From sequence record PZ862964.1: a stretch of 64,000 bases of DNA, one strand, 5' to 3'. The notes under the pieces were generated by a model, which had not been told where the DNA came from, did no database searches, and saw nothing but the letters and a program-made list of their open reading frames with translations. The number at the start of each line of letters is the position of its first letter. The stretch's first letter is position 1. Shown here piece after piece: positions 1 to 49,474 of the stretch. A program made the position numbers and the translations under genes. This DNA is from a phage.

Positions 1-1393
1 GAATTACATTAAGTTTCCAATGGGTTCACTTGATATTGCTCCATCACGCGAAGCTCTTTCATTAGATGATCGTACTCGTAAAAATATTATTGAACGAGTT
101 AAAGAACTCAGTGAGAAAGCATTTAATGAAGATGTAAAACGATTTAAAGAATCTACATCTCCTCGTCATACATACCGTGAATTGATGAAGATGGGGTATT
201 CTGCTCGAGATTATATGATTAGCAATTCAGTCAAATTCACGACTAAAAATCTGTCATATAAAAAGATGCAGAGCATGTTTGAACCTGACAGTAAGTTATG
301 CAATGCAGGGGTTGTGTATGAAGTAAATCTTGACCCTCGACTGAAGCGCATTAAGCAAAGTCATGAAACTTCAGCCGTTGCATCAAGTTATCGTCTGTTT
401 GGTATTAATACAACAAAAATTAATATCGTTATTGATAATATTAAAAATCGTGTTAATATTGTCCGTGGATTAGCACGTGCGTTAGATGATAGTGAATTTA
501 ATAACACTCTGAATATTCATCATAATGAGCGTCTTCTGTTTATTAATCCAGAAGTAGAATCACAGATTGATTTACTCCCTGATATTATGGCGATGTTTGA
601 AAGTGATGAAGTTAACATTCATTATTTGTCAGAAATTGAAGCTTTAGTTAAAAGCTATATTCCAAAGGTAGTTAAAAGTAAAGCTCCTCGTCCTAAAGCT
701 GCTACAGCATTTAAGTTTGAAATTAAAGATGGGCGATGGGAAAAAGAGGAACTATTTACACTTACGTCAGAAGCAGATGAAATTACTGGTTATGTAGCGT
801 ATATGCATCGTTCTGATATTTTCTCTATGGATGGTACTACATCGCTTTGTCATCCATCTATGAATATTTTGATTCGTATGGCTAATCTTATTGGCATTAA
901 TGAATTTTATGTTATTCGTCCGCTTTTGCAGAAAAAGGTAAAAGAGCTTGGTCAGTGCCAATGTATTTTTGAAGCTTTACGTGATTTATATGTAGATGCT
1001 TTTGATGATGTAGATTATGATAAGTATGTAGGTTATTCAAGTTCAGCTCAACGATATATTGATAAAATTATCAAGCATCCTGAACTAGATTTTATGATGA
1101 AGTACTTCAGTACAGATGAAGTTTCTGAAGAATATACACGACTTGGTAATATGGTTAGTTCATTGCGTGGTGTATATTTTAATGGTGGAAAAGATACCAT
1201 CGGTCATGACATCTGGACAGTAACTAATCTTTTTGATGTATTATCAAATAATGCTTCAAAAAACAGTGATAAAATGGTTGCTGAGTTTACCAAGAAATTC
1301 CGTATTGTTTCCGACTTCATCGGATATCGCAACTCTTTAAGTGATGATGAAGTTTCCCAAATCGCCAAAACTATGAAGGCCCTTGCGGCCTAA
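1..1393 (+). CDS. rIIA: rIIA protein, 3' portion (5' end outside window)
   Basis: Frame open from window edge to stop at 1391-1393; directly upstream of rIIB as in T-even phages; identity by synteny only. Confidence 0.7.
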
Positions 1394-1404
1394 TAAGGAA
1401 AATT

Positions 1405-2343
1405 ATGTACAATATTAAATGCCTGACCAAAAACGAACAAGCTGAAATTGTTAAACTGTATTCAAGTGGTAATTACACTCAGCAGGAATTAGCTTATTGG
1501 AAGGATGTATCGGTTGACACAATCCGTCGTGTTTTGAAAAATGCTGAAGAAGCTAAACGCCCTAAAGTTACTATTAGCGGTGATATTACAGTTAAAGTTA
1601 ATAGCGATGCAGTTATTGCTCCAGTTGCTAAATCTGACATTATTTGGAATGCATCTAAAAAATTCATTTCAATTACCGTTGACGGCGTAACTTATAACGC
1701 AACTCCTAATACTCATTCAAACTTCCAGGAAATTCTTAATCTGCTTGTAGCAGATAAGCTGGAAGAAGCTGCGCAAAAAATTAACGTTCGTCGCGCTGTT
1801 GAAAAATATATTTCCGGTGATGTTCGAATTGAAGGTGGAAGCTTGTTCTATCAAAATATTGAATTGCGGTCTGGTTTGGTTGATCGTATTCTTGACTCGA
1901 TGGAAAAAGGTGAAAACTTTGAATTTTATTTTCCGTTCTTGGAAAATCTGCTGGAAAACCCAAGCCAAAAAGCGGTATCTCGACTCTTTGATTTCTTGGT
2001 AGCAAACGATATTGAAATCACCGAAGATGGTTACTTCTATGCTTGGAAAGTAGTTCGCAGCAATTACTTTGACTGTCACTCAAACACCTTTGATAACAGT
2101 CCGGGTAAAGTAGTTAAAATGCCACGTACTCGTGTGAATGACGATGATACACAAACTTGTTCTCGTGGTCTGCATGTGTGTTCTAAATCTTATATTCGTC
2201 ACTTTGGCAGTTCAACTAGCCGAGTTGTAAAAGTTAAAGTACATCCTCGCGATGTAGTATCAATTCCGATTGATTACAACGACGCTAAAATGCGTACCTG
2301 CCAATACGAAGTAGTTGAAGACGTTACTGAACAATTTAAATAA
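1405..2343 (+). CDS. rIIB: rIIB protein
   Basis: 312-aa ORF with SD AAGGAAAAT upstream; length and N-terminus MYNIKCLTKNEQ agree with recalled T4 rIIB. Confidence 0.85.
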   Translation: MYNIKCLTKNEQAEIVKLYSSGNYTQQELAYWKDVSVDTIRRVLKNAEEAKRPKVTISGDITVKVNSDAVIAPVAKSDIIWNASKKFISITVDGVTYNATPNTHSNFQEILNLLVADKLEEAAQKINVRRAVEKYISGDVRIEGGSLFYQNIELRSGLVDRILDSMEKGENFEFYFPFLENLLENPSQKAVSRLFDFLVANDIEITEDGYFYAWKVVRSNYFDCHSNTFDNSPGKVVKMPRTRVNDDDTQTCSRGLHVCSKSYIRHFGSSTSRVVKVKVHPRDVVSIPIDYNDAKMRTCQYEVVEDVTEQFK

Positions 2344-2374
2344 GGGCTTCGGCCCTTAACTAAGGAAAATTATG
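2329..2374 (+). repeat. direct repeat copy 1 (gene end + hairpin + RBS)
   Basis: ACAATTTAAATAA-GGGCTTCGGCCC-TT..TAAGGAAAATTATG; second copy at 2552-2606. Confidence 0.7.
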
Positions 2375-2566
2375 TTAGGTTATCAAGCACGAGTAAAAGA
2401 AGAATACGATCAATTAATGCTCAAAATTAATGCACTGAGCAAATTTTTAGAAAGCGCAAAGTTTCTAACAGTTAGTGCAGTTGAGCAAGAACTGCTACTT
2501 TCACAGTTCATCTCAATGAAATCTTATGCTGAATGTCTAGAGAAAAGAATTGCACAATTCAAATAA
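2372..2566 (+). CDS. hypothetical protein (64 aa)
   Basis: ORF with SD TAAGGAAAA; bracketed by two copies of a GGGCTTCGGCCC hairpin module. Confidence 0.5.
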   Translation: MLGYQARVKEEYDQLMLKINALSKFLESAKFLTVSAVEQELLLSQFISMKSYAECLEKRIAQFK

Positions 2567-2606
2567 AATAAGGGCTTCGGCCCTTTTGTTTTAAGGAAAA
2601 ATTATG
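2552..2606 (+). repeat. direct repeat copy 2 (gene end + hairpin + RBS)
   Basis: ACAATTCAAATAA-aata-GGGCTTCGGCCC-TT..TAAGGAAAAATTATG. Confidence 0.7.
2570..2592 (+). terminator. intrinsic terminator-like hairpin
   Basis: AAGGGC-TTCG-GCCCTT followed by TTTGTTTT. Confidence 0.55.
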
Positions 2607-2933
2607 ATTTATTGTATGAATATCGGTGATTCCGACATAAAAGAGATTAAACTGCACGGAAATCATCACGCTAATATTGTGTACTGTAATAAATTTGAGT
2701 TTGGTCACGAAAAACTTGGGTTTCTTTACTGTAATGATGTTATAGTCATGGATAAAAAGGAGCTCGATGAACTTGACCGCGAGTCTTTAGATGAAAATGA
2801 CCGAATTTATTATGGCACTCTTAAAGTATATAACGCCTATCTCAGTGGTAAAAAGGAAAGTCTAAATGCAGAAAACGAATCCGGGTTTACAGAGACTATT
2901 TCAGATTCCGACATTTACCCTATCGAACAGTGA
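2604..2933 (+). CDS. hypothetical protein (109 aa)
   Basis: ORF with SD TAAGGAAAAA 7 nt upstream; no recognisable motif. Confidence 0.5.
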   Translation: MIYCMNIGDSDIKEIKLHGNHHANIVYCNKFEFGHEKLGFLYCNDVIVMDKKELDELDRESLDENDRIYYGTLKVYNAYLSGKKESLNAENESGFTETISDSDIYPIEQ

Positions 2934-3423
2934 CTTGACTAGTGAAATGAAGGTCAAAATTGCTGATACAGCAAGATACTCTTTAAAACAAAATCCGAAT
3001 CAGGATAAGGCAGAAGTTATCGAAAGATGCCGTATCGCTGTGTACGCAGAGTTTTTTGTAGCAGATTGGCTAAGCGGATATGTCAATAAAGGCCAAGAGG
3101 ATGTTAATGACCCGTATACATACGCATGGGATGTATTGGCGCATCCAAGATACTGCGGGCTTCGTGTAGAAGTTAAGACACACCAAACTGACTCACGTTG
3201 GATTTCTGTAACAACAGGATGCAGCGGAGAGTATCCATACGGTTCTGGAATAAATCTAGGGCCCATTCTGAATCATCAGGTCGCTGACTGTATAATTATA
3301 TTCAACACTAAAGAAATTCATCCAGGTGTCATCCAGTACACTCCGAAGTTCATTGGTGATAGAGAAGACCTTCGTAAGGTTGTAAGAAAAAGCAACTACA
3401 ACGGATGGTATCTTTCCATTTAA
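2866..3423 (+). CDS. denB: endonuclease IV (DenB)-like protein
   Basis: 185-aa ORF, same length as recalled T4 DenB and in its position next to rIIB; start uncertain (68-nt overlap with upstream ORF). Confidence 0.6.
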   Translation: MQKTNPGLQRLFQIPTFTLSNSDLTSEMKVKIADTARYSLKQNPNQDKAEVIERCRIAVYAEFFVADWLSGYVNKGQEDVNDPYTYAWDVLAHPRYCGLRVEVKTHQTDSRWISVTTGCSGEYPYGSGINLGPILNHQVADCIIIFNTKEIHPGVIQYTPKFIGDREDLRKVVRKSNYNGWYLSI

Positions 3424-3439
3424 AAATTTTCACAAAACG

Positions 3440-3469
3440 GTTTACATACCACAAGGACCGTGGTACTAT
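3440..3469 (+). promoter_or_regulatory. early-type promoter
   Basis: GTTTAC, 18-nt spacer, TACTAT; shares TTTTCACAAAACGGTTTACA and GGTACTATACAACTATC blocks with three other loci. Confidence 0.55.
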
Positions 3470-3496
3470 ACAACTATCAGCTACGGAGGAGTAAAA

Positions 3497-3760
3497 ATGA
3501 AATTTAAATTTTATTACGCTAAACATAAAATTACCGGTGAATTTATTGCATTTACGACTTCAACTACAGGTGAAGGAGATATTTTTACTGCAGTATTTTT
3601 ATCAAAATGGGAATCAGATCAACCTTACTTATCATCATGTGAAGATCTCCAACGATTAGTTAATGGAGAATATAATGATTCATGGTCATATTTAGTCCAT
3701 GATTGTGTTAAAAAGGCAATAAAACAAAAACACTTGGAAATCGTTGAGATTGAACTATGA
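3497..3760 (+). CDS. hypothetical protein (87 aa)
   Basis: ORF preceded by early-type promoter and SD GGAGGAG. Confidence 0.55.
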   Translation: MKFKFYYAKHKITGEFIAFTTSTTGEGDIFTAVFLSKWESDQPYLSSCEDLQRLVNGEYNDSWSYLVHDCVKKAIKQKHLEIVEIEL

Positions 3761-3839
3761 GTTCATTATGGTGGTGTTTTGTTTGGTTAATTAGTATTCC
3801 AGTAATTTGTTTAACATTTACTTTTGTGATGAGGTTATT

Positions 3840-3938
3840 ATGAAAATTTTGAATTCTGTACTTATTGCTTGTGCGTGGTGGGTTGTGCAAGTTTCAGCGG
3901 TAGTAGTTGGTATTCACATTTATTACGAATATTTTTAA
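3840..3938 (+). CDS. hypothetical 32-aa hydrophobic peptide
   Basis: ATG 5 nt after GAGG; MKILNSVLIACAWWVVQVSAVVVGIHIYYEYF; too short for ORF track. Confidence 0.3.
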   Translation: MKILNSVLIACAWWVVQVSAVVVGIHIYYEYF

Positions 3939-3945
3939 AAAAGTT

Positions 3946-3975
3946 GTTTACAAGACTGTTCCTCTGTGGTACTAT
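3946..3975 (+). promoter_or_regulatory. early-type promoter nested in inverted repeat
   Basis: GTTTAC, 18 nt, TACTAT; arms CTGTTCCTC (3956-3964) and GAGGAACAG (3992-4000), the latter containing the SD. Confidence 0.55.
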
Positions 3976-4003
3976 ACAACTATCAACTACGGAGGAACAG
4001 AAA

Positions 4004-4117
4004 ATGAAAAAGATTGTTAAAGCTATATGGAATGTAGTTATAATACTAATAGTTTTGAGTATATTCCCAATCGTTTTAATGATTGATGTATTAAACGTTT
4101 ACTTTGGATTTATGTGA
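4004..4117 (+). CDS. hypothetical 37-aa membrane peptide
   Basis: ATG after SD GGAGGA (3991-3996); the longer ORF-track version crosses the promoter and is unlikely. Confidence 0.5.
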   Translation: MKKIVKAIWNVVIILIVLSIFPIVLMIDVLNVYFGFM

Positions 4118-4124
4118 GGAAAAT

Positions 4125-4322
4125 ATGAAGCGTAAACGCAGTGCTTTTACATTTATTGAATGGTTTTTCGATAATATTTTTCCGGCTTTATTCATTTTCA
4201 TGCTGATTTTTGCCTTAGGTTCAGTTGTAGTTGGAATCTATTTGATGACAGTAGTCGGAATTGATATTCATCAAAATGGTTTAAAATCCGTAGTTGAAAC
4301 AATTTGGAATGGTGTAAAATGA
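4125..4322 (+). CDS. hypothetical 65-aa membrane protein
   Basis: ATG after SD GAGGA; hydrophobic core FPALFIFMLIFALGSVVVGIYLMTVVGI. Confidence 0.5.
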   Translation: MKRKRSAFTFIEWFFDNIFPALFIFMLIFALGSVVVGIYLMTVVGIDIHQNGLKSVVETIWNGVK

Positions 4323-4429
4323 TGAATTTACTAAACATTTGGTTTTATATTCTTATGTTTTACATTGGTGCAAATTTCCCATATTGGATGGGATGGTCAA
4401 CAACTGCATTTGGATTTTATACTCCTTGA
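4319..4429 (+). CDS. hypothetical 36-aa hydrophobic peptide
   Basis: ATGA start/stop overlap with preceding ORF; aromatic-rich hydrophobic sequence. Confidence 0.4.
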   Translation: MMNLLNIWFYILMFYIGANFPYWMGWSTTAFGFYTP

Positions 4430-4437
4430 GGTGAATT

Positions 4438-4653
4438 ATGAAAAGTTTTAAAGATGTAAAAGTTGGTGAAATTTTTTGTTTAGATAACGGTGATCAGTTA
4501 ATTCGTATTTCACCTCTTAAGAGCACTAGCGAGAAACCGACAGTTAATGCTACTTTAGCAAATAATAGTAATGAACGTTTCTGTATTGAAAATGATACTG
4601 AAACTTATACCGTAGAAGAATTCTGGGAATTGAGCGTCGACTGCGACGATTAA
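4438..4653 (+). CDS. hypothetical protein (71 aa)
   Basis: ORF with SD GAGGTGA upstream. Confidence 0.5.
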   Translation: MKSFKDVKVGEIFCLDNGDQLIRISPLKSTSEKPTVNATLANNSNERFCIENDTETYTVEEFWELSVDCDD

Positions 4654-4713
4654 TTTAATGGCCGTGTGTATTCATGCGGCCTTGGAGTAGAAAATAATTT
4701 AGAGGAAATTAAT

Positions 4714-5172
4714 ATGAAATATATGACTGTTACTGATCTGAACAACGCAGGCGCTACCGTTATTGGTACAATCAAGAACGGTGAATGGTTTTTGGGAGTT
4801 CCACATAAAGATATTTTATCTAAACCTGGATTTTACTTTTTAGTGTGTAAATTAGATGGTCGTCCATTTAGTAATCCGTGCGTGTCTGCACGATTTTATG
4901 TAGGTAATCAGCGTTCTAAGCAAGGATTCAGTGCGGTTCTAAGTCATATTCGTCAGCGTCGGTCTCAGCTTGCGCGTACTATTGCAAATAACAATGTTCC
5001 ATACACAGTATTTTATCTGCCTGCTTCTAAGATGAAACCTCTGACGACGGGATTTGGTAAAGGTCAGTTAGCTTTGGCGTTTACTCGTAATCATCATTCC
5101 GAGTATCAAACACTTGAAGAAATGAACCGTATGTTGGCTGATAACTTTAAATTTGTTTTGCAGGCATATTAA
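4714..5172 (+). CDS. ndd: nucleoid disruption protein Ndd
   Basis: 152-aa ORF from [11 protein letters not shown] after SD GAGGAAA; agrees with recalled T4 Ndd; ORF-track start 4666 is an upstream extension. Confidence 0.8.
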
Positions 5173-5252
5173 TGAGTAATTTCCATAACGAACACGTGAT
5201 GCAGTTCTATCGTAACAATCTTAAAACCAAAGGCGTCTTCGGACGCCAGTGA
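5172..5252 (+). CDS. stp: Stp peptide (activator of host PrrC anticodon nuclease)
   Basis: 26-aa [29 protein letters not shown], matching recalled T4 Stp; ATG overlaps ndd stop (TAATG). Confidence 0.8.
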
Positions 5253-5259
5253 GGAAAAT

Positions 5260-5418
5260 ATGAATATTGCAAAATTATTAGGAGTTATTTCATTTATTTG
5301 TTGGATAGTAGCATGTGTTTTAACTATCTGTATTGATGCCAGCAGTGTGTTTTCGCAAGCTTTAGCTCAGGGTATGTGTGCATATTTAACATTTGTGTTG
5401 TTATCTACTAATGATTAA
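5260..5418 (+). CDS. ac: small membrane protein, probable Ac (acridine sensitivity)
   Basis: 52-aa hydrophobic ORF after SD GAGGAAAA; position between stp and gene 52 as in T4. Confidence 0.5.
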   Translation: MNIAKLLGVISFICWIVACVLTICIDASSVFSQALAQGMCAYLTFVLLSTND

Positions 5419-5551
5419 GAAAATCTTGGGCTATTCATTAGCCCTTGCTACTTTATTGGTAGCACTATATTATGGAGTAATGTTCGGATTAATTCAAGTC
5501 GTGCTTTTCATTTCTGATGTTATTATGGCACTACATTCACTAGTATGGTAA
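5411..5551 (+). CDS. hypothetical 46-aa membrane peptide
   Basis: ORF MIKKILGYSLALATLLVALYYGVMFGLIQVV; tight packing just upstream of gene 52. Confidence 0.4.
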   Translation: MIKKILGYSLALATLLVALYYGVMFGLIQVVLFISDVIMALHSLVW

Positions 5552-5555
5552 ATTT

Positions 5556-6884
5556 ATGCAACTGAATAATCGCGATTTAAAAAGTATCATTGATAATGAA
5601 GCATTGGCTTATGCTATGTACACGGTTGAAAATCGTGCTATCCCAAATATGATTGACGGATTTAAGCCAGTTCAACGATTTGTTATTGCTCGAGCTCTTG
5701 ATTTGGCACGAGGAAATAAAGATAAGTTTCACAAACTCGCTTCTATTGCAGGTGGTGTAGCGGACCTTGGATATCATCATGGTGAAAACTCTGCGCAAGA
5801 CGCAGGTGCTTTGATGGCTAATACTTGGAATAATAACTTTCCTTTGTTAGATGGTCAAGGAAACTTTGGTTCTCGTACTGTCCAAAAGGCAGCGGCAAGT
5901 CGTTATATTTTTGCTCGTGTAAGTAAAAATTTCTATAACGTATATAAAGATACTGAATATGCTCCGGTACATCAAGATAAAGAACACATTCCGCCTGCTT
6001 TCTATTTGCCTGTTATTCCTACTGTTCTTCTTAATGGCGTTTCCGGTATTGCAACTGGTTATGCAACTTACATTCTTCCTCATAGTGTTTCTTCTGTCAA
6101 GAAAGCTGTACTACAAGCTCTTCAAGGAAAGAAAGTAACTAAACCGAAGGTAGAATTCCCAGAATTTCGCGGTGAAGTCGTTGAAATTGATGGGCAATAT
6201 GAAATTCGTGGAACATATAAGTTTACTTCACGAACTCAAATGCATATCACTGAGATTCCGTATAAGTATGATCGTGAAACTTACGTGAGTAAAATCTTAG
6301 ACCCGCTTGAAGATAAAGGCTTCATTACATGGGATGATGCTTGCGGTGAGCATGGTTTTGGCTTTAAAATTAAATTCCGCAAAGAATACTCTTTGAGCGA
6401 TAATGAAGAAGAACGCCATGCAAAAATCATGAAAGACTTCGGGTTGATTGAGCGTCGTTCCCAGAATATTACCGTTATTAATGAGAAAGGAAAACTACAA
6501 GTTTACGATAACGTAGTTGATTTAATTAAAGACTTTGTTGAAGTTCGTAAAACTTATGTTCAAAAACGAATTGATAACAAAATTAAAGAAACTGAATCAG
6601 CTTTTCGTTTAGCCTTTGCCAAGGCGCATTTCATTAAGAAAGTAATTTCAGGTGAAATCGTTGTGCAGGGTAAAACTCGTAAAGAACTGACCGAAGAACT
6701 TTCGAAAATCGATATGTATTCTTCTTATGTTGATAAACTAGTTGGAATGAATATTTTTCATATGACTTCCGATGAAGCGAAGAAACTTGCTGAAGAAGCT
6801 AAAGCTAAAAAAGAAGAAAACGAATATTGGAAAACTACTGATGTAGTTACAGAATACACCAAAGATTTAGAGGAAATCAAATGA
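5556..6884 (+). CDS. 52: DNA topoisomerase II medium subunit gp52
   Basis: 442-aa ORF with GyrA/ParC-like N-terminal motif KPVQRFV; length as recalled for T4 gp52. Confidence 0.9.
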   Translation: MQLNNRDLKSIIDNEALAYAMYTVENRAIPNMIDGFKPVQRFVIARALDLARGNKDKFHKLASIAGGVADLGYHHGENSAQDAGALMANTWNNNFPLLDGQGNFGSRTVQKAAASRYIFARVSKNFYNVYKDTEYAPVHQDKEHIPPAFYLPVIPTVLLNGVSGIATGYATYILPHSVSSVKKAVLQALQGKKVTKPKVEFPEFRGEVVEIDGQYEIRGTYKFTSRTQMHITEIPYKYDRETYVSKILDPLEDKGFITWDDACGEHGFGFKIKFRKEYSLSDNEEERHAKIMKDFGLIERRSQNITVINEKGKLQVYDNVVDLIKDFVEVRKTYVQKRIDNKIKETESAFRLAFAKAHFIKKVISGEIVVQGKTRKELTEELSKIDMYSSYVDKLVGMNIFHMTSDEAKKLAEEAKAKKEENEYWKTTDVVTEYTKDLEEIK

Positions 6885-7030
6885 GTCCATTCGTAGGTAT
6901 TACAAGCGCAGCATTAGTATCTGGCGGCATTTTACTAGCGGGGGTAGGTGTTGTTCCAGCCGTAGCAGGAGGTCTTCTTGCTTTTGGTATTCAGCGTGTT
7001 ATCACGATAGTTATCGCGTTTGAACAGTAA
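6881..7030 (+). CDS. hypothetical 49-aa glycine-rich membrane peptide
   Basis: ATGA overlap with gene 52 stop; followed by hairpin terminator. Confidence 0.5.
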   Translation: MSPFVGITSAALVSGGILLAGVGVVPAVAGGLLAFGIQRVITIVIAFEQ

Positions 7031-7035
7031 TTTTT

Positions 7036-7059
7036 GGGGAGCTTCGGCTCCCCTTTTTT
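7036..7059 (+). terminator. intrinsic terminator
   Basis: GGGGAGC-TTCG-GCTCCCC followed by TTTTTT. Confidence 0.7.
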
Positions 7060-7084
7060 ATTTCAAAAATTTTTTCACAAAACG

Positions 7085-7114
7085 GTTTACAACCAAAGCA
7101 TACTGTGGTACTAT
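7085..7114 (+). promoter_or_regulatory. early-type promoter upstream of motA
   Basis: GTTTAC, 18 nt, TACTAT; flanks near-identical to the cassette at 24216-24285. Confidence 0.6.
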
Positions 7115-7155
7115 ACAACTATCAACTACTGATACAGAATTACGGAGATTAGAAA

Positions 7156-31850: not shown

Positions 31851-33435
<1,585 letters not shown>

Positions 33436-42974: not shown

Positions 42975-43243
42975 TGTTTGTTGTTCACACTATTTATGAA
43001 AATGAAGGTAATACTACACGTGATTACGGTCACGTAAATCAATTTTTTAGATGCAATCCAGAATTCCGAGCTCAAAAAGACGAACGAATTTTTAAAAAAT
43101 GTGTAGAGCAAGGTTTCATTTACGTCAAGCATTGGATGCAAGGAAATAAAGTTAGAACCACGTACCATAGGTCTTTGACTGAGCTTAATGATGAATTGAT
43201 TTATAATAGAGCTGTAAACCAAACTCTAAAGGATGAACAATGA
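42974..43243 (+). CDS. hypothetical protein (89 aa)
   Basis: ORF with TAATG overlap upstream of ligase. Confidence 0.5.
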   Translation: MFVVHTIYENEGNTTRDYGHVNQFFRCNPEFRAQKDERIFKKCVEQGFIYVKHWMQGNKVRTTYHRSLTELNDELIYNRAVNQTLKDEQ

Positions 43244-44703
43244 TTCTTAAAATTCTGAACGAAATAGCATCTATTGGTTCAACTAAGCAGAAGCAAGCAA
43301 TTCTTGAAAAGAATAAAGATAATGAATTGCTCAAACGAGTATATCGTCTGACTTATTCTCGTGGGTTACAGTATTATATAAAGAAATGGCCTAAACCCGG
43401 TATTGCTACCCAGAGTTTTGGGATGCTGACTATTACCGATATGCTCGATTTTATTGAATTCACGTTAGCTACTCGGAAATTAACTGGAAATGCAGCAATT
43501 GAGGAATTAATCGGATATATCACCGATGGTAAAAAAGATGATGTTGAAGTATTACGTCGAGTAATGATGCGAGACCTTGAATGTGGTGCTTCTGTATCTA
43601 TTGCAAACAAAGTTTGGCCAGGTTTAATTCCTGAACAACCTCAAATGCTCGCAAGTTCTTATGATGAAAAAGGCATTAGTAAGAATATCAAATTTCCAGC
43701 CTTTGCCCAGTTAAAAGCTGATGGAGCTCGGTGTTTTGCTGAAGTTAGAGGTGATGAATTAGATGATGTTCGTCTTTTATCACGAGCTGGTAATGAATAT
43801 CTAGGATTAGATCTTCTTAAAGAAGAGTTAATCAAAATGACCGCTGAAGCCCGCCAGATTCATCCAGAAGGTGTGTTAATTGATGGCGAATTGGTATACC
43901 ATGAGCAAGTTAAAAAGGAGCCAGAAGGCCTAGATTTTCTTTTTGATGCTTATCCTGAAATTAGTAAAGCTAAAGAGTTTGCTGAAGTAGCTGAATCACG
44001 TACTACTTCTAATGGAATCGCTAATAAATCTTTAAAGGGAACTATTTCAGAAAAAGAAGCTCAATGCATGAAGTTTCAGGTCTGGGATTATGTTCCGTTG
44101 GTAGAAATATACGGTCTTCCAGCATTTCGTTTAAAATATGATGTACGTTTTTCTAAATTAGAACAAATGACATCAGGATATGATAAAGTAATTTTAATTG
44201 AAAACCAAGTAGTAAATAACCTAGATGAAGCTAAGGTAATTTATAAAAAGTATATTGACCAAGGTCTTGAAGGTATTATTCTCAAAAATATTGATGGATT
44301 ATGGGAAAATGCTCGTTCAAAAAATCTCTATAAATTTAAAGAAGTAATTGATGTTGATTTAAAAATTGTAGGAATTTATCCTCACCGTAAAGACCCTACT
44401 AAAGCAGGTGGATTTATTCTTGAGTCAGAGTGTGGAAAAATTAAGGTAAATGCTGGTTCAGGCTTAAAAGATAAAGCCGGCGTAAAATCACATGAACTTG
44501 ACCGTACTCGCATTATGGAAAACCAAAATTATTATATTGGAAAAATTCTAGAGTGCGAATGCAACGGTTGGTTAAAATCCGATGGCCGCACTGATTACGT
44601 TAAATTATTTCTTCCGATTGCGATTCGTTTACGCGAAGATAAAACTAAAGCTAATACGTTCGAAGATGTATTTGGTGATTTTCATGAGGTAACTGGTTTA
44701 TGA
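43240..44703 (+). CDS. 30: ATP-dependent DNA ligase gp30
   Basis: 487-aa ORF with adenylylation motif KADGAR; agrees with recalled T4 ligase. Confidence 0.95.
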   Translation: MILKILNEIASIGSTKQKQAILEKNKDNELLKRVYRLTYSRGLQYYIKKWPKPGIATQSFGMLTITDMLDFIEFTLATRKLTGNAAIEELIGYITDGKKDDVEVLRRVMMRDLECGASVSIANKVWPGLIPEQPQMLASSYDEKGISKNIKFPAFAQLKADGARCFAEVRGDELDDVRLLSRAGNEYLGLDLLKEELIKMTAEARQIHPEGVLIDGELVYHEQVKKEPEGLDFLFDAYPEISKAKEFAEVAESRTTSNGIANKSLKGTISEKEAQCMKFQVWDYVPLVEIYGLPAFRLKYDVRFSKLEQMTSGYDKVILIENQVVNNLDEAKVIYKKYIDQGLEGIILKNIDGLWENARSKNLYKFKEVIDVDLKIVGIYPHRKDPTKAGGFILESECGKIKVNAGSGLKDKAGVKSHELDRTRIMENQNYYIGKILECECNGWLKSDGRTDYVKLFLPIAIRLREDKTKANTFEDVFGDFHEVTGL

Positions 44704-44888
44704 AAGCTTACTTAGAAACAATTGTCGTGGCTCAAAAAGAAGGTGGAGATGTTTCTACTTCTGTATCACAAATCATGATTGAATTTATCGATGCATATGC
44801 TTATAATAAATTCACAGAAACTTTTGATGCTTATGAAAAAGGTCCAAAGTTTGAAATATATCGTACTCTCTTACCTATAGATTATTAA
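44700..44888 (+). CDS. hypothetical protein (62 aa)
   Basis: ORF with ATGA overlap to ligase stop; followed by terminator. Confidence 0.5.
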   Translation: MKAYLETIVVAQKEGGDVSTSVSQIMIEFIDAYAYNKFTETFDAYEKGPKFEIYRTLLPIDY

Positions 44889-44910
44889 AGGCCTTCGGGC
44901 CTTTAATTTT
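44887..44910 (+). terminator. terminator-like hairpin
   Basis: AAAGGCC-TTCG-GGCCTTT followed by AATTTT. Confidence 0.55.
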
Positions 44911-44917
44911 ATAAATA
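44910..44917 (+). promoter_or_regulatory. late promoter (TATAAATA) upstream of alt
   Basis: TATAAATA 23 nt upstream of alt ATG. Confidence 0.55.
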
Positions 44918-44940
44918 GAATAAACACTAGAGAGGATATG

Positions 44941-47034
44941 ATGGAACTCATTACAGAATTATTTGACGAAGATACTACTCTTCCGATTACAAACTTAAAT
45001 CCAAAGAAGAAAATACCACAAATTTTTTCAGTTCATGTTGATGATGCAATTGAACAACCAGGCTTTCGTTTATGTACCTATACGTCTGGAGGTGATACTA
45101 ATCGTGATTTAAAGATGGGCGATAAAATGATGCATATTGTTCCTTTTACATTAACTGCTAAAGGTTCAATTGCTAAATTAAAAGGTCTTGGTCCAAGCCC
45201 AATTAATTATATCAATTCAGTTTTTACTGTTGCAATGCAAACAATGCGTCAGTATAAAATTGATGCTTGTATGCTCCGTATTCTTAAGTCTAAAACTGCT
45301 GGTCAAGCTAGACAAATTCAAGTTATTGCTGATAGACTTATCCGTAGTCGTTCAGGTGGCAGATACGTCCTTCTTAAGGAACTCTGGGATTACGATAAAA
45401 AGTATGCATATATTCTTATACATCGCAAAAATGTATCACTAGAAGACATTCCAGGAGTTCCGGAAATTAGTACCGAGCTCTTTACTAAAGTTGAATCGAA
45501 GGTCGGTGATGTTTATATCAATAAAGATACTGGAGCTCAAGTAACTAAAAATGAGGCAATTGCAGCATCTATTGCACAAGAAAATGATAAACGTTCTGAC
45601 CAAGCTGTAATCGTTAAAGTTAAAATTTCCCGTAGAGCAATTGCGCAAAGTCAATCGTTAGAGTCTTCTAGATTTGAAAGTGAATTATTCCAGAAGTATG
45701 AATCTACAGCAGCTAATTTTAATAAACCTGCTACCGCTCCTTTAATTCCCGAAGCAGAAGAAATGAAGCTTGGAATTAATTCATTAGCTTCTAAAACCAA
45801 GGCAGCAAAAATTATTGCCGAAGGAACTGCAGATGAACTTCATTATGACTATAAATTCTTTTCAAAAAGTGAGGTTAATGAAGTTTCTGAAAAAATTAAA
45901 GATGTAATTCTTAATGCGATTAAAAATGAACCAACTACTTCAATAAAATGTTTAGAGAAATACGCAGCAGCTGTTAATCAACTCTTTGAAGAATATAAAG
46001 ATAATTGGCTTGATAAACATAATAAAACTCGTAAAGGGCAGCCAGATGAAGTCTGGGAAGAAATGACTAAAAATTCCTGGAACGCAGCAAAAACTAAATT
46101 CCTCAAAAGAATGATTTATAGTTTTTCTGGAATTGGTGCAGGTCCAATGATTGATATTACTATTGCCCGTGATGGTTCTAAATATACTCCATCACAAAAG
46201 CGCGGCATTAGAGAGTATTGTGGTTCAGGATATACTGACATCAATAATCTTCTTTTAGGTCGTTACAATCCAGAACGATATGATGTAATGAGTGAAAAAG
46301 AAATTGAATCTGCTATAACTAATTTAGATTCAGCTTTTGAAAATGGTGACCGCATACCGGAAGGCATTACAGTTTATCGTGCTCAAAGTATGACTGCTCC
46401 TATATACGAAGCGCTAGTTAAAAATAAAGTGTTCTACTTCAGAAATTTTGTATCTACTTCTTTAACTCCTATCATTTTTGGACGTTTTGGAATTACACAT
46501 GCTGGTATTGGTCTTTTAGAACCAGAATCTCGCAATGAATTAACAGTTGATAAAAATGAAGAAGGAATAACTATTAATCCAAACGAAATAAGAGCGTATA
46601 AAGAAAATCCTGAATACGTTAAAGTTCAAATAGGATGGGCAATTGATGGAGCTCATAAAGTTAATGTTGTATATCCAGGAAGTCTCGGAATAGCAACAGA
46701 AGCTGAAGTTATTCTACCGCGTGGATTGATGGTCAAAGTTAATAAAATAACTGATGCTTCTAATAATGACGGAACAACATCTAATAATACAAAACTCATT
46801 CAAGCTGAAGTTATGACCACGGAAGAGCTCACCGAATCGGTAATCTATGATGGAGACCATTTAATGGAAACTGGTGAATTGGTTGCAATGACAGGTGATA
46901 TTGAAATAGAAGACAGAGTTGACTTTGCATCATTTGTTTCATCAAATGTTAAACAGAAAGTAGAATCATCTCTTGGAATTATTGCGTCTTGCATAGATAT
47001 TACAAACATGCCTTACAAGTTCGTTCAAGGATAA
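44941..47034 (+). CDS. alt: Alt-like ADP-ribosyltransferase (paralog 1)
   Basis: 697-aa ORF MELITELFDEDTTLP; C-terminal R-S-E motif series (VYRAQS, FVSTS, EAEVILPRG); TATAAATA late promoter upstream. Confidence 0.85.
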   Translation: MELITELFDEDTTLPITNLNPKKKIPQIFSVHVDDAIEQPGFRLCTYTSGGDTNRDLKMGDKMMHIVPFTLTAKGSIAKLKGLGPSPINYINSVFTVAMQTMRQYKIDACMLRILKSKTAGQARQIQVIADRLIRSRSGGRYVLLKELWDYDKKYAYILIHRKNVSLEDIPGVPEISTELFTKVESKVGDVYINKDTGAQVTKNEAIAASIAQENDKRSDQAVIVKVKISRRAIAQSQSLESSRFESELFQKYESTAANFNKPATAPLIPEAEEMKLGINSLASKTKAAKIIAEGTADELHYDYKFFSKSEVNEVSEKIKDVILNAIKNEPTTSIKCLEKYAAAVNQLFEEYKDNWLDKHNKTRKGQPDEVWEEMTKNSWNAAKTKFLKRMIYSFSGIGAGPMIDITIARDGSKYTPSQKRGIREYCGSGYTDINNLLLGRYNPERYDVMSEKEIESAITNLDSAFENGDRIPEGITVYRAQSMTAPIYEALVKNKVFYFRNFVSTSLTPIIFGRFGITHAGIGLLEPESRNELTVDKNEEGITINPNEIRAYKENPEYVKVQIGWAIDGAHKVNVVYPGSLGIATEAEVILPRGLMVKVNKITDASNNDGTTSNNTKLIQAEVMTTEELTESVIYDGDHLMETGELVAMTGDIEIEDRVDFASFVSSNVKQKVESSLGIIASCIDITNMPYKFVQG

Positions 47035-47037
47035 ATC

Positions 47038-49095
47038 ATGGAACTTATTACAGAATTATTTGACGGCGCTTCGGCGCCGGTTGTTAACTTAAATCCTAAG
47101 CATAAAATACCTCAAATTTTTGCTATTCAAGCCGGTGAAGAAAGTGTGCTTCCTGGATTTAGATTTTGTACATACACCTCTGGTGGTGATACAAATAAAA
47201 ACGTTAAGCCAGGCGATAAAATGATGCATATCGTAATGATAGGTGTCAACGAGAAATTATCGCTGGTTAAGCTTAGAAACTTGGGTGGAAATCCAATTGG
47301 CGTCATTAATGCTGTTTTTGATACTGCTCTTCAAACAATGAAGCAGTACAAAATTGACGCGTGCTTATTCCGTGTACTAAAGAGTAAAACAAATGGCGCA
47401 GCTCGTCAAATGCAAGTTATTGCTGACCGTTTAGTACGTACTAAAGGAGCAGGTCGATATGTTCTTTTAAAGGAAATCTGGGACTATGATAAAAAGTATG
47501 CATATATTATGGTTTACCGTAAAAATGCCAATTTAGAAGACATTCCAGGTGTACCTCCTATTTCAACTGAGTTATTCACAAAAGTTGAATCAAAGGTTGG
47601 TGATGTTTATGTAGACGTTAAAACAGGTAATGCTGTTCCTAAAGCTGTCGCTGTTGCTGCTTCTATTGCTTTAGAAAATGATAAGCGCACTGATCAAGCT
47701 GTTATTCAGAAAACTAAAATTAGTCGTCGATTAGCAGCACAAGCTCAATATTCTACTGTTGATGCTTCACTTCAGGGCGATAGCTTCGCTGCCAAGAAAT
47801 ATCAAGAGTTTGAATCTAAAGTTCCGGTATATAAAGCAGAAGGACCAATGAACTCTGGCGTTATCCAGATTGGTTCAAACTTCAGCAAAGGAGCTATCGG
47901 TGGTATGAGAAGTGCTTCTCGTTTTAAATCTAATGATTATGAACTAGAAAGTTTCCGAAATCATATTGCATTAGCTCATGCACGTTTACGCGATCCATCT
48001 ATCAAGCTGCAGAGCGATATAACATATCAAGGTTCTCAAGAATATTTAAAGAATAAAGAATTTTTTGATTATAAAACTGATAAAATTTTAAGCGATCTTG
48101 CTGACATTAATATTTCTAATAGCTTTGATGTTATTAAGAAAATTATCAATGATTTAGTTAAAGGTTCTAAAGCTACATCAGATGAAAAGACAGCTATTAT
48201 TCAATTTGTAATGAATGGCATTTATAAATTGATTAATGAATCTGCTGCTCAGGCATATGAATACGCAAGCACCGAAGTAACTCCAAAAGGATTAACTCAA
48301 GCTGAATCTGATGTAATTGAAGATTATTGTGCAGATTCATATGTTGAAATGAACTCGTTCCTTTTGGGTAAACCAGATTCTACCCGTGAAGAATATATGG
48401 AACGAGCTATTAAACATATTGAGACGCTGGATTCTGCATTCGCCAAAGGATCAGTTCTTCCTCCAGGAACTACACTTTACCGTGGACAAGAAGTTACCTT
48501 TAAAACTTTGCGTCATAACATTGAAAATAAAATGTTCTATTTCAAGAACTTCGTATCGACATCACTTAAACCAAATATCTTCGGTGAGCATGGTAAAAAC
48601 TATATGGCTCTAGATGATTCCGGCGCAGTATTTTCTGGCGAAGGAGAAGGTTCCGTTGATGCAGAAGATTTAATGCATATGGGTAGTCATTCTACATATG
48701 CCAATGAAGATGCTGAAACTAGCGTGGGTATGGTAATTAAAGGAGCTGAGCGAATCAAAGTTATCGTTCCAGGTCATTTATCAGGATTTCCATCAGAAGC
48801 TGAAGTTATTCTACCGCGTGGAATTTTACTGAAGATTAATAAAGTAAGTACGTACTTTATGAAAGAAACTGCTTATAACAAGTATCTAATCGAAGGTACA
48901 ATCGTTCCTCCTTCTGAACAATTAGAAGAATCAGTATATGATGGAGACCATCTAATGGAAACTGGTGAAGTTCGTCCAATGGCTGGATTTAATCAATTCC
49001 TTGTAGAAGAATCAAAAGAAGAGGAAAACGAAGTTTCTCAAATCTTAGCTTCTTTGGTTAACATCAACGGAATGTCTAAAAAGTTCAAGATGTAG
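47038..49095 (+). CDS. Alt-like ADP-ribosyltransferase (paralog 2)
   Basis: 685-aa ORF MELITELFDGASAPV; same N-terminal block and R-S-E motifs (LYRGQE, FVSTS, EAEVILPRG); divergent middle. Confidence 0.8.
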   Translation: MELITELFDGASAPVVNLNPKHKIPQIFAIQAGEESVLPGFRFCTYTSGGDTNKNVKPGDKMMHIVMIGVNEKLSLVKLRNLGGNPIGVINAVFDTALQTMKQYKIDACLFRVLKSKTNGAARQMQVIADRLVRTKGAGRYVLLKEIWDYDKKYAYIMVYRKNANLEDIPGVPPISTELFTKVESKVGDVYVDVKTGNAVPKAVAVAASIALENDKRTDQAVIQKTKISRRLAAQAQYSTVDASLQGDSFAAKKYQEFESKVPVYKAEGPMNSGVIQIGSNFSKGAIGGMRSASRFKSNDYELESFRNHIALAHARLRDPSIKLQSDITYQGSQEYLKNKEFFDYKTDKILSDLADINISNSFDVIKKIINDLVKGSKATSDEKTAIIQFVMNGIYKLINESAAQAYEYASTEVTPKGLTQAESDVIEDYCADSYVEMNSFLLGKPDSTREEYMERAIKHIETLDSAFAKGSVLPPGTTLYRGQEVTFKTLRHNIENKMFYFKNFVSTSLKPNIFGEHGKNYMALDDSGAVFSGEGEGSVDAEDLMHMGSHSTYANEDAETSVGMVIKGAERIKVIVPGHLSGFPSEAEVILPRGILLKINKVSTYFMKETAYNKYLIEGTIVPPSEQLEESVYDGDHLMETGEVRPMAGFNQFLVEESKEEENEVSQILASLVNINGMSKKFKM

Positions 49096-49155
49096 TTTAC
49101 AAGTTCCTTATGTTGTGTTATAGTAGTCTTACTGACATAACATGAGGAACACAAA
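49095..49155 (+). promoter_or_regulatory. promoter/stem-loop cassette (copy 2 of 2)
   Basis: GTTTAC, 18 nt, TATAGT; 13-bp arms 49106-49118 and 49135-49147 with compensatory changes relative to copy 1. Confidence 0.6.
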
Positions 49156-49446
49156 ATGAAATCTTCTTTACGCTTTTTAGGTCAAGAACTTGTAGTTGAA
49201 GGCGTTATTCCTGCTGATAATGCTTTTAATGAAGCAGTTTATGATGAATTTATCAAAATTTTTGGAACAGATAAAAAGTTCGGAATTTTTCCTTCTGAAA
49301 ATTTTTCAAAGCCAGAACAGACTGAAAGTATTTTTCAGGGTGTAGTAACAGGTAAATTTGAGTCAGAAGCTCCGGTAAAAATTGAAGTTTATATTGAAGA
49401 CAGTTTAGTTGCTTCAGTTGCTGCTTTCATTTCATTCCGTAAATAA
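49156..49446 (+). CDS. hypothetical protein (96 aa)
   Basis: ORF with SD GAGGA behind an early-type promoter/hairpin cassette. Confidence 0.55.
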   Translation: MKSSLRFLGQELVVEGVIPADNAFNEAVYDEFIKIFGTDKKFGIFPSENFSKPEQTESIFQGVVTGKFESEAPVKIEVYIEDSLVASVAAFISFRK

Positions 49447-49452
49447 AAATAT

Positions 49453-49470
49453 GGGGACCGAAAGGTCCCC
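49453..49470. terminator. bidirectional terminator-like hairpin
   Basis: GGGGACC-GAAA-GGTCCCC with A-run on one side and T-rich tract on the other, between convergent genes. Confidence 0.6.
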
Positions 49471-49474
49471 ATTG

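Follow-up and report, generated by a model that had tools for sequence, protein, structure and literature searches.

Why does a phage that already carries alt carry a second, diverged copy directly behind it? The question is raised by the window analysed here, a 64,000-nt stretch of phage DNA (sequence record PZ862964.1) that is part of a Tequatrovirus genome (T2/RB32-like) and is ~97% identical to phages slur07, phiD1 and AndreasVesalius across the 25 kb around the gene pair. Two open reading frames (ORFs) for Alt-like ADP-ribosyltransferases lie head to tail on one strand, 3 nt apart; ORF1 begins with two adjacent ATGs, at 44938 or 44941, giving a product of 698 or 697 aa.

44941-47034, + strand: alt (ORF1), 697 aa, from the ORF list.
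47038-49095, + strand: alt.-2 (ORF2), 685 aa, encoding Alt2, from the ORF list.

The best explanation is that both genes of the locus are functional and that their products are paralogs of Alt, a phage head protein. T4 Alt is present at ~40 copies per head, trimmed by the gp21 protease and injected, and ADP-ribosylates the alpha subunit of RNA polymerase and other host proteins (PMC9958956, PMC5694885). For Alt2, a probability of roughly 0.6 is given to its being a second late-expressed, capsid-packaged, gp21-processed and injected arginine mono-ADP-ribosyltransferase with targets of its own.

The relationship between the two proteins is clear. They are 40% identical over their full length (BLASTP, E = 4e-158), a similarity far beyond chance, and the original prediction, made from the letters and an ORF list, was right that adjacent ORFs of 697 and 685 aa share sequence: all of the strings that it quoted (MELITELFD, KIDAC, LKSKT, QVIADRL, GRYVLLKE, WDYDKKYAYI, YR, FVSTS and EAEVILPRG) are present. 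Its picture of shared ends around a diverged middle is borne out region by region, with 66% identity for residues 7-238, 19% for residues 239-410, 34% for the ADP-ribosyltransferase domain (residues 411-630) and 65% for the block YDGDHLMETGE. The assignment to Alt-like ADP-ribosyltransferases also holds, as both proteins match PF03496 (ADPrib_exo_Tox; 127.1 bits, E 6.9e-37 for ORF1 and 72.0 bits, E 5.4e-20 for ORF2, against a cut-off of 23.4) and align with T4 Alt at 70% (ORF1) and 41% (ORF2) full-length identity. PHROG 802 is matched end to end by both, no NCBIfam match was found for either, and a search of the PDB by sequence returned nothing for ORF2 and, for ORF1, only weak CDTa/iota-like matches. 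On the evidence of these alignments, ORF1 and ORF2 are true full-length homologues of T4 Alt.

The predicted layout of ORF1 comprises a propeptide, MELITE (residues 1-6), a basic N-terminal domain (7-238), a helical variable region (239-410), the ADP-ribosyltransferase domain (~411-630) and an LTE motif ending at residue 632, after which an acidic C-terminal propeptide follows; the domain order of ORF2 is the same. An ADP-ribosyltransferase fold is predicted for both by AlphaFold, in models of medium confidence (pLDDT, the program's own confidence score, 74.5 and 73.2) that begin with a disordered N-terminal peptide; an alpha/beta domain then extends as far as ~225 and a long helical stretch reaches ~470, and the ADP-ribosyltransferase domain, which contains a low-confidence insert after the Ser-Thr-Ser (STS) motif, precedes a disordered C-terminal tail. 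Both proteins share their catalytic fold and their R, STS and ExE motifs with Vis, iota toxin Ia, CDTa, C2I, VIP2 and the C3 exoenzymes, at a sequence identity of just ~17-25%. Unlike the binary toxins, which are recognized by two tandem ADP-ribosyltransferase-fold domains, the Alt proteins have no second, adaptor domain of this kind, and have in its place a basic N-terminal domain specific to phages, together with a helical region and propeptides removed by a protease. Closer in setting are ModA and ModB of T4, which like Alt are R-S-E phage ADP-ribosyltransferases whose targets are host proteins of transcription and translation (PMC5512222, PMC10468400), but which are small, made early and not packaged, and lack the N-terminal domain and propeptides; ModB is also able to link NAD-capped RNA to proteins.

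The catalytic residues of both copies could be placed in the DNA as follows.

46378-46380, + strand: catalytic Arg480 of ORF1 (YR motif), from an invariant alignment column and the motif table.
46453-46461, + strand: Ser505-Thr506-Ser507 of ORF1 (STS motif), from the alignment and the motif table.
46699-46707, + strand: Glu587-Ala-Glu589 of ORF1 (ExE motif, ARTT loop), from the alignment and the motif table.
48481-48483, + strand: catalytic Arg482 of ORF2, from an invariant alignment column.
48556-48564, + strand: Ser507-Thr508-Ser509 of ORF2, from the alignment and the motif table.
48787-48804, + strand: ARTT loop of ORF2, Phe584-Pro-Ser-Glu587-Ala-Glu589.

Across 21 homologues the columns of the Arg, both Ser and both Glu residues are invariant, and that of the Thr is at least 90% conserved. 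Inactivating substitutions in the R-S-E residues, which the original prediction had named as a sign against its reading, occur in neither copy. Among eight Tequatrovirus orthologs the reading frames of alt and alt.-2 are intact throughout, and alt has a ratio of mean nonsynonymous to mean synonymous divergence (dN/dS) of 0.056 and alt.-2 one of 0.044, calculated from all 28 pairs at a dS of 0.14-0.19. Both genes are under strong purifying selection. The frameshifted and deleted remnant that T4 and 90 other records carry in place of alt.-2 could suggest that Alt2 is decaying or catalytically dead, a duplicate heading for the same state, but the data on selection and motifs already contradict this reading, which is very improbable: the frame is intact in 8/8 orthologs with a dN/dS of 0.044, there is no variation at the R, STS and ExE residues, and the gene is found at no less than 90% protein identity in 403 records.

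These 403 phage records were obtained by a translated search with ORF2, the identities being 97-99.9% among the tblastn matches listed, and of the Tequatrovirus sequence records searched, about three quarters carry Alt2. At the DNA level the 4.9-kb region matches 545 phage records, with at least 80% of the region covered in 354. The second gene lies between alt and alt.-3 in RB32, T2, WL-3, BP32, bov10K1, SH-2, JK1 and four BASEL phages; it is annotated as alt.-2, “similar to alt,” in RB32 and as “ADP-ribosyltransferase Alt2” in the BASEL phages Bas39, Bas42, Bas44 and Bas45, and also in Bas37, while RefSeq names both genes “Alt-like RNA polymerase ADP-ribosyltransferase.” Duplications of alt in T4-like genomes were noted by Nolan et al. 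2006 (PMC1524935). The alt/alt.-2 pair is thus already known, common and annotated in hundreds of public genomes, so that the original prediction overestimated its novelty. RB32 Alt.-2, BASEL Alt2 and the unnamed second Alt-like gene of T2 are orthologs of ORF2 with 685 aa and the same position, and ORF2 shows no substantive difference from them, only a handful of mostly synonymous changes; in the DNA-level comparison, seven Tequatrovirus orthologs differ from ORF2 by 1-22 nonsynonymous changes. A stray match was found in GenBank MG010123.1 (Staphylococcus phage SAJK-IND), where the final 238 nt of a 32-kb record (31935-32172) match the 3′ part of Alt2 at 95% identity, an apparent contamination or misassembly of the database record rather than biology.

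Whether T4 itself has a second full-length copy, which the original prediction had left as a query, can be answered: it has none, only a remnant annotated as alt.-1 (61 aa) and alt.-2 (67 aa), which follow a 682-aa alt. Aligned to the window, the two small genes are the first ~340 nt of ORF2, nearly unchanged, and the T4 remnant measures 358 nt compared with 2,058 nt in the window. Two lesions account for the difference, a 1-nt frameshift and a deletion of 1,699 nt between two microhomology copies.

47197-47201, + strand: run of A, one base shorter in T4; the frameshift splits T4 alt.-1 from alt.-2.
47377-47385, + strand: 9-nt microhomology flanking the T4 deletion, left copy, CTAAAGAGT.
49076-49084, + strand: microhomology flanking the T4 deletion, right copy, CTAAAAAGT.

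The intervening 1,699 nt are missing from T4. A probe for the T4 junction is fully covered in 91 phage records, so that the deletion looks like a single event that is now found in a minority of genomes. By these sequence comparisons T4 is the exception and not the rule for the second alt copy. The T4 pair and ORF2 share a common origin, with the PHROG families built on the T4 pair fitting ORF2 better than ORF1; the T4 gene is broken and ORF2 is intact. The T4 annotation speaks of a “duplication of the first part of alt”; what T4 carries is better understood as the relic of a complete paralog.

How old the two copies are can be judged from separate trees of the catalytic half (residues 239-631) and of the N-terminal domain, the topologies of which disagree. 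In the tree of the catalytic half, one clade holds the window Alt together with T2 Alt, T4 Alt, JS10 copy 1, PSD2002 copy 2 and Mosigvirus Alt, and a second clade holds the window Alt2 together with T2 Alt2, JS10 copy 2, PSD2002 copy 3, several metagenomic proteins and a Klebsiella phage Alt. The N-terminal domains group by phage genus. The Dhakavirus JS10 has the same tandem pair at the same position, its copies 1 and 2 corresponding to the Alt and Alt2 catalytic clades, and since this pair matches both clades, the duplication predates the split of Tequatrovirus and Dhakavirus. The arrays of JS10, PSD2002 and Aeromonas phage 31.2 occupy the same locus as the window pair, between DNA ligase and gp54, but differ from it in that their proteins are just ~48-50% identical to the window Alt2 and their N-terminal domains are genus-specific. 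PSD2002, an Escherichia phage of the genus Dhakavirus, has three tandem Alt paralogs of 631, 693 and 707 aa at this locus (1012-7124). Aeromonas phage 31.2 has two Alt copies, a pair that appears to be a separate, independent duplication.

Exchange between the tandem copies is suggested by four database proteins (P0003-P0006) in which Alt2 carries an Alt-type N-terminus, in the region equivalent to positions 47038-47700 of the window. Their crossover points all differ, lying near residues 47, 106, 190 and 222, and are evidence for repeated gene conversion between the copies; this fits an N-terminal module that would be exchangeable between copies and matched to the phage's own head. The alt gene itself exists as two old alleles, T4-type and T2-type. 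ORF1, of the T2 type, is the same gene as T4 alt in the same synteny, and residues 1-246 and the last ~100 residues are almost identical to those of T4 Alt, but residues 247-410 are only 28% identical and the ADP-ribosyltransferase domain 59%. Within residues 247-600 of ORF1, the alt gene of Dhakavirus JS10 is closer (80% DNA identity) than that of T4, a likeness that implies exchange of the catalytic cassette between genera. The allele type of alt was considered as a predictor of Alt2 and rejected, with Alt2 occurring alongside T4-type alt in 118 records and alongside T2-type alt in 278, and both alleles also occurring without it.

Whether Alt2 travels in the head can be approached through its processing motifs. 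The gp21 prohead protease trims T4 Alt by 6 N-terminal residues at ITE-6 and by 63 C-terminal residues at LTE-619, leaving a mature protein of 68.2 kDa (PMC5694885). The criterion applied here was ITE at residue 6 together with L-x-E ~55-65 residues from the C-terminus, the sites having been mapped experimentally in T4 Alt only; applied to the T4 Alt sequence, the same motifs give 68.2 kDa, exactly the published mature mass. The corresponding sites in the window, beyond the MELITE with which both ORFs begin, are the following.

46828-46836, + strand: Leu-Thr-Glu 630-632 of ORF1, equivalent of the gp21 site LTE-619 in T4 Alt.
47047-47055, + strand: Ile-Thr-Glu 4-6 of ORF2, N-terminal gp21 motif, identical to that of Alt.
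48922-48930, + strand: Leu-Glu-Glu 629-631 of ORF2, predicted C-terminal gp21 site, followed by the conserved SVYDGDHLMETGE block.

In both proteins the C-terminal L-x-E is followed by S-V at the equivalent place (LTE-632 in ORF1, LEE-631 in ORF2), the N-terminal domain is basic (isoelectric point ~9.5) and the C-terminal tail acidic, and the predicted mature masses are 70.1 kDa for ORF1 and 69.2 kDa for ORF2. Taken together, these features suggest that Alt2 shares the packaging and processing of Alt. Alternatively, Alt2 could be active without being injected, having a late role in the producing cell, or serving mainly, by way of its N-terminal domain, in the structure or assembly of the prohead core. 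That domain does evolve in step with the phage genus, a literature search found no proteomic evidence of Alt2 in virions, and the “Intermediate” fitness class assigned to Alt2 on a laboratory host in the transposon data described below would fit a cost related to assembly. On the other side, Alt and Alt2 have the same MELITE propeptide, conservation extends to the C-terminal L-x-E and to the YDGDHLMETGE block, the natural chimeras indicate that the N-terminal domains of Alt and Alt2 are interchangeable, and T4 assembles normally without Alt2; a role confined to the producing cell or the prohead is thus considered improbable.

The following expression signals lie around the pair.

44887-44904, + strand: hairpin AAAGGCC-TTCG-GGCCTTT, then AATTTT, directly past the alt.1 stop codon, identified by eye.
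44910-44917, + strand: T4-type late promoter consensus TATAAATA, 24 nt 5′ of the alt start codon.
49096-49124, + strand: sigma-70-like promoter (TTTACA, 17-nt spacer, TATAGT) for alt.-3, from the promoter scan.

The hairpin is probably a terminator that parts the early ligase/alt.1 transcript from alt; it was not called by the scan for consensus terminators, and a terminator 5′ of alt has been reported to be conserved among T4-like genomes (PMC1524935). The late promoter consensus is the only TATAAATA site on the + strand near alt and alt.-2. No second promoter consensus was found between the two genes, and an AAGGA ribosome-binding sequence for ORF2 sits within the final codons of alt. The promoter at 49096-49124 appears to mark the 3′ end of the alt/alt.-2 unit, and late co-transcription of both genes would be the simplest reading.

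The remaining part of the question is whether the two enzymes modify the same proteins. In C3 and iota-type toxins the ARTT loop, ahead of the Q/E-x-E motif, contributes to substrate recognition. At position -3 from the first Glu of this motif, members of the Alt2 clade have an aromatic residue (F, Y or W), and members of the Alt clade have I, P, Q or H. The least conserved parts of the proteins are the acidic insert past the STS motif and the helical region. Together with the ARTT loop, these differences are consistent with different substrates for Alt and Alt2, short of proof. According to a 2025 preprint on transposon sequencing in phages, in the reference library of Bas37, which has the same gene pair, grown on E. 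coli K-12, Alt2 (bas37_0032) was hit at 116 of its 164 TA sites with a mean count of 44.5 and classed as “Intermediate,” and Alt (bas37_0033) was hit at 164 of 179 sites with a mean count of 203.6 and classed as “Non-essential” (bioRxiv 10.1101/2025.11.20.689424), which suggests that the two are not equivalent in this assay. The same preprint states that T4 Alt helps the phage to escape the Mokosh type I defence system, a function that Bas37 Alt cannot take over (bioRxiv 10.1101/2025.11.20.689424); on this account, variants of Alt therefore differ in function.

If Alt2 were instead a redundant dosage copy, it would modify the host proteins of Alt and merely boost or back up the injected activity. 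The two proteins do share domain order, catalytic motifs and predicted processing sites, both alt alleles are found with and without Alt2, and T4 lost the gene without obvious cost. However, identity is just 34% in the ADP-ribosyltransferase domains and 19% in the region before them, the ARTT position is clade-specific, transposon fitness is unequal in the Bas37 data, and both catalytic lineages have been kept paired in a second genus, a length of time over which a dN/dS of ~0.04 is unexpected for a spare copy. The original prediction had named as a further counter-sign identity with a known two-gene arrangement of shown redundancy; the arrangement proved to be known, though not as one of shown redundancy, and the counter-sign does not apply as worded. 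Simple redundancy is accordingly given a low probability. Different targets for Alt and Alt2, as the original prediction had proposed, have indirect support from the pairing of two old clades in a second genus, the ARTT difference, the purifying selection and the differing fitness in the Bas37 library.

Two injected enzymes with separate targets would work as follows. Both genes would be transcribed late from one promoter onto a single transcript, and the shared basic N-terminal domain and propeptides would direct both proteins to the prohead core, where gp21 would trim them to ~69-70 kDa. Both would then be injected along with the DNA and, using NAD+, would each mono-ADP-ribosylate arginines on different sets of host proteins, those of Alt being RNA polymerase alpha and the further targets already established for it. 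Specificity would likely reside in the variable helical region, the acidic insert past the STS motif and the ARTT loop, and the N-terminal domain would serve as an exchangeable packaging module that is homogenised between the copies by gene conversion.

Several points weigh against this reading. A literature search found no report of ADP-ribosyltransferase activity, virion presence, injection or a target for Alt2. The gene is missing in T4 and ~90 other records, and since these phages do without it, Alt2 is dispensable on laboratory hosts. The low transposon counts of Alt2 in Bas37 could reflect toxic truncated products or insertion bias instead of loss of function, and the three HIDEN-SEQ host comparisons examined show no extra host-specific depletion of Alt2 (log2 fold changes 0.11, 0.19 and 0.00). 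The TATAAATA octamer occurs 10 times in the window against an expected 9.7, which is no enrichment, so that the case for a late promoter rests on the position of the motif and not on its rarity; likewise, co-transcription of alt and alt.-2 is deduced from their spacing only. The structural models, of medium confidence, come from a shallow alignment of 21 sequences.

As a pair, alt and alt.-2 are nothing unusual and have been annotated before, so that the window adds no discovery in this respect; the interest lies in the function of Alt2. T4 is the textbook model of phage ADP-ribosylation and is usually described with three such enzymes, so that Alt2 would be a fourth ADP-ribosyltransferase, present in most of the Tequatrovirus records searched and lost from T4. 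Being conserved, under selection and probably injected at the onset of infection, Alt2 is a reasonable candidate for an effector of host takeover or anti-defence. As a tentative extension, possible but clearly less probable than the reading above, the alt locus may be seen as a cassette system that joins a genus-specific N-terminal packaging module to one to three interchangeable ADP-ribosyltransferase “warheads,” in which Alt2 would be an injected counter-defence enzyme disabling a host immunity or stress protein distinct from the targets of Alt. A precedent for counter-defence is that Alt acts on MazF; the Alt-dependent evasion of Mokosh type I is another. If this extension were true, the loss of Alt2 in T4 would explain some of the differences in host range among the T-even phages.

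The genes on either side of the pair are arranged as in T4, with the order ligase, alt.1, alt, alt.-2 and alt.-3.

43240-44703, + strand: DNA ligase gene.
44700-44888, + strand: alt.1, 62 aa.
49156-49446, + strand: alt.-3, 96 aa, Pfam DUF5498, directly 3′ of alt.-2.

The stop codon of the ligase gene is overlapped by the start codon of alt.1, the product of which matches Pfam PF24647, “Phage blade protein” (E = 7.5e-29). Beyond alt.-3, genes 54, 48 and 29 lie on the opposite strand, and a hairpin with a 9-bp GC-rich stem (49451-49472), called as a terminator on both strands by the scan, is located between the convergent alt.-3 and 54. In T4, escape from the defence system CmdTAC occurs through mutations that lengthen the C-terminus of Alt.-3 (PMC11618068), and in the Bas37 transposon data the alt.-3 ortholog bas37_0031 is depleted on strain CFT073 (log2 fold change -2.70, adjusted p = 0.02).

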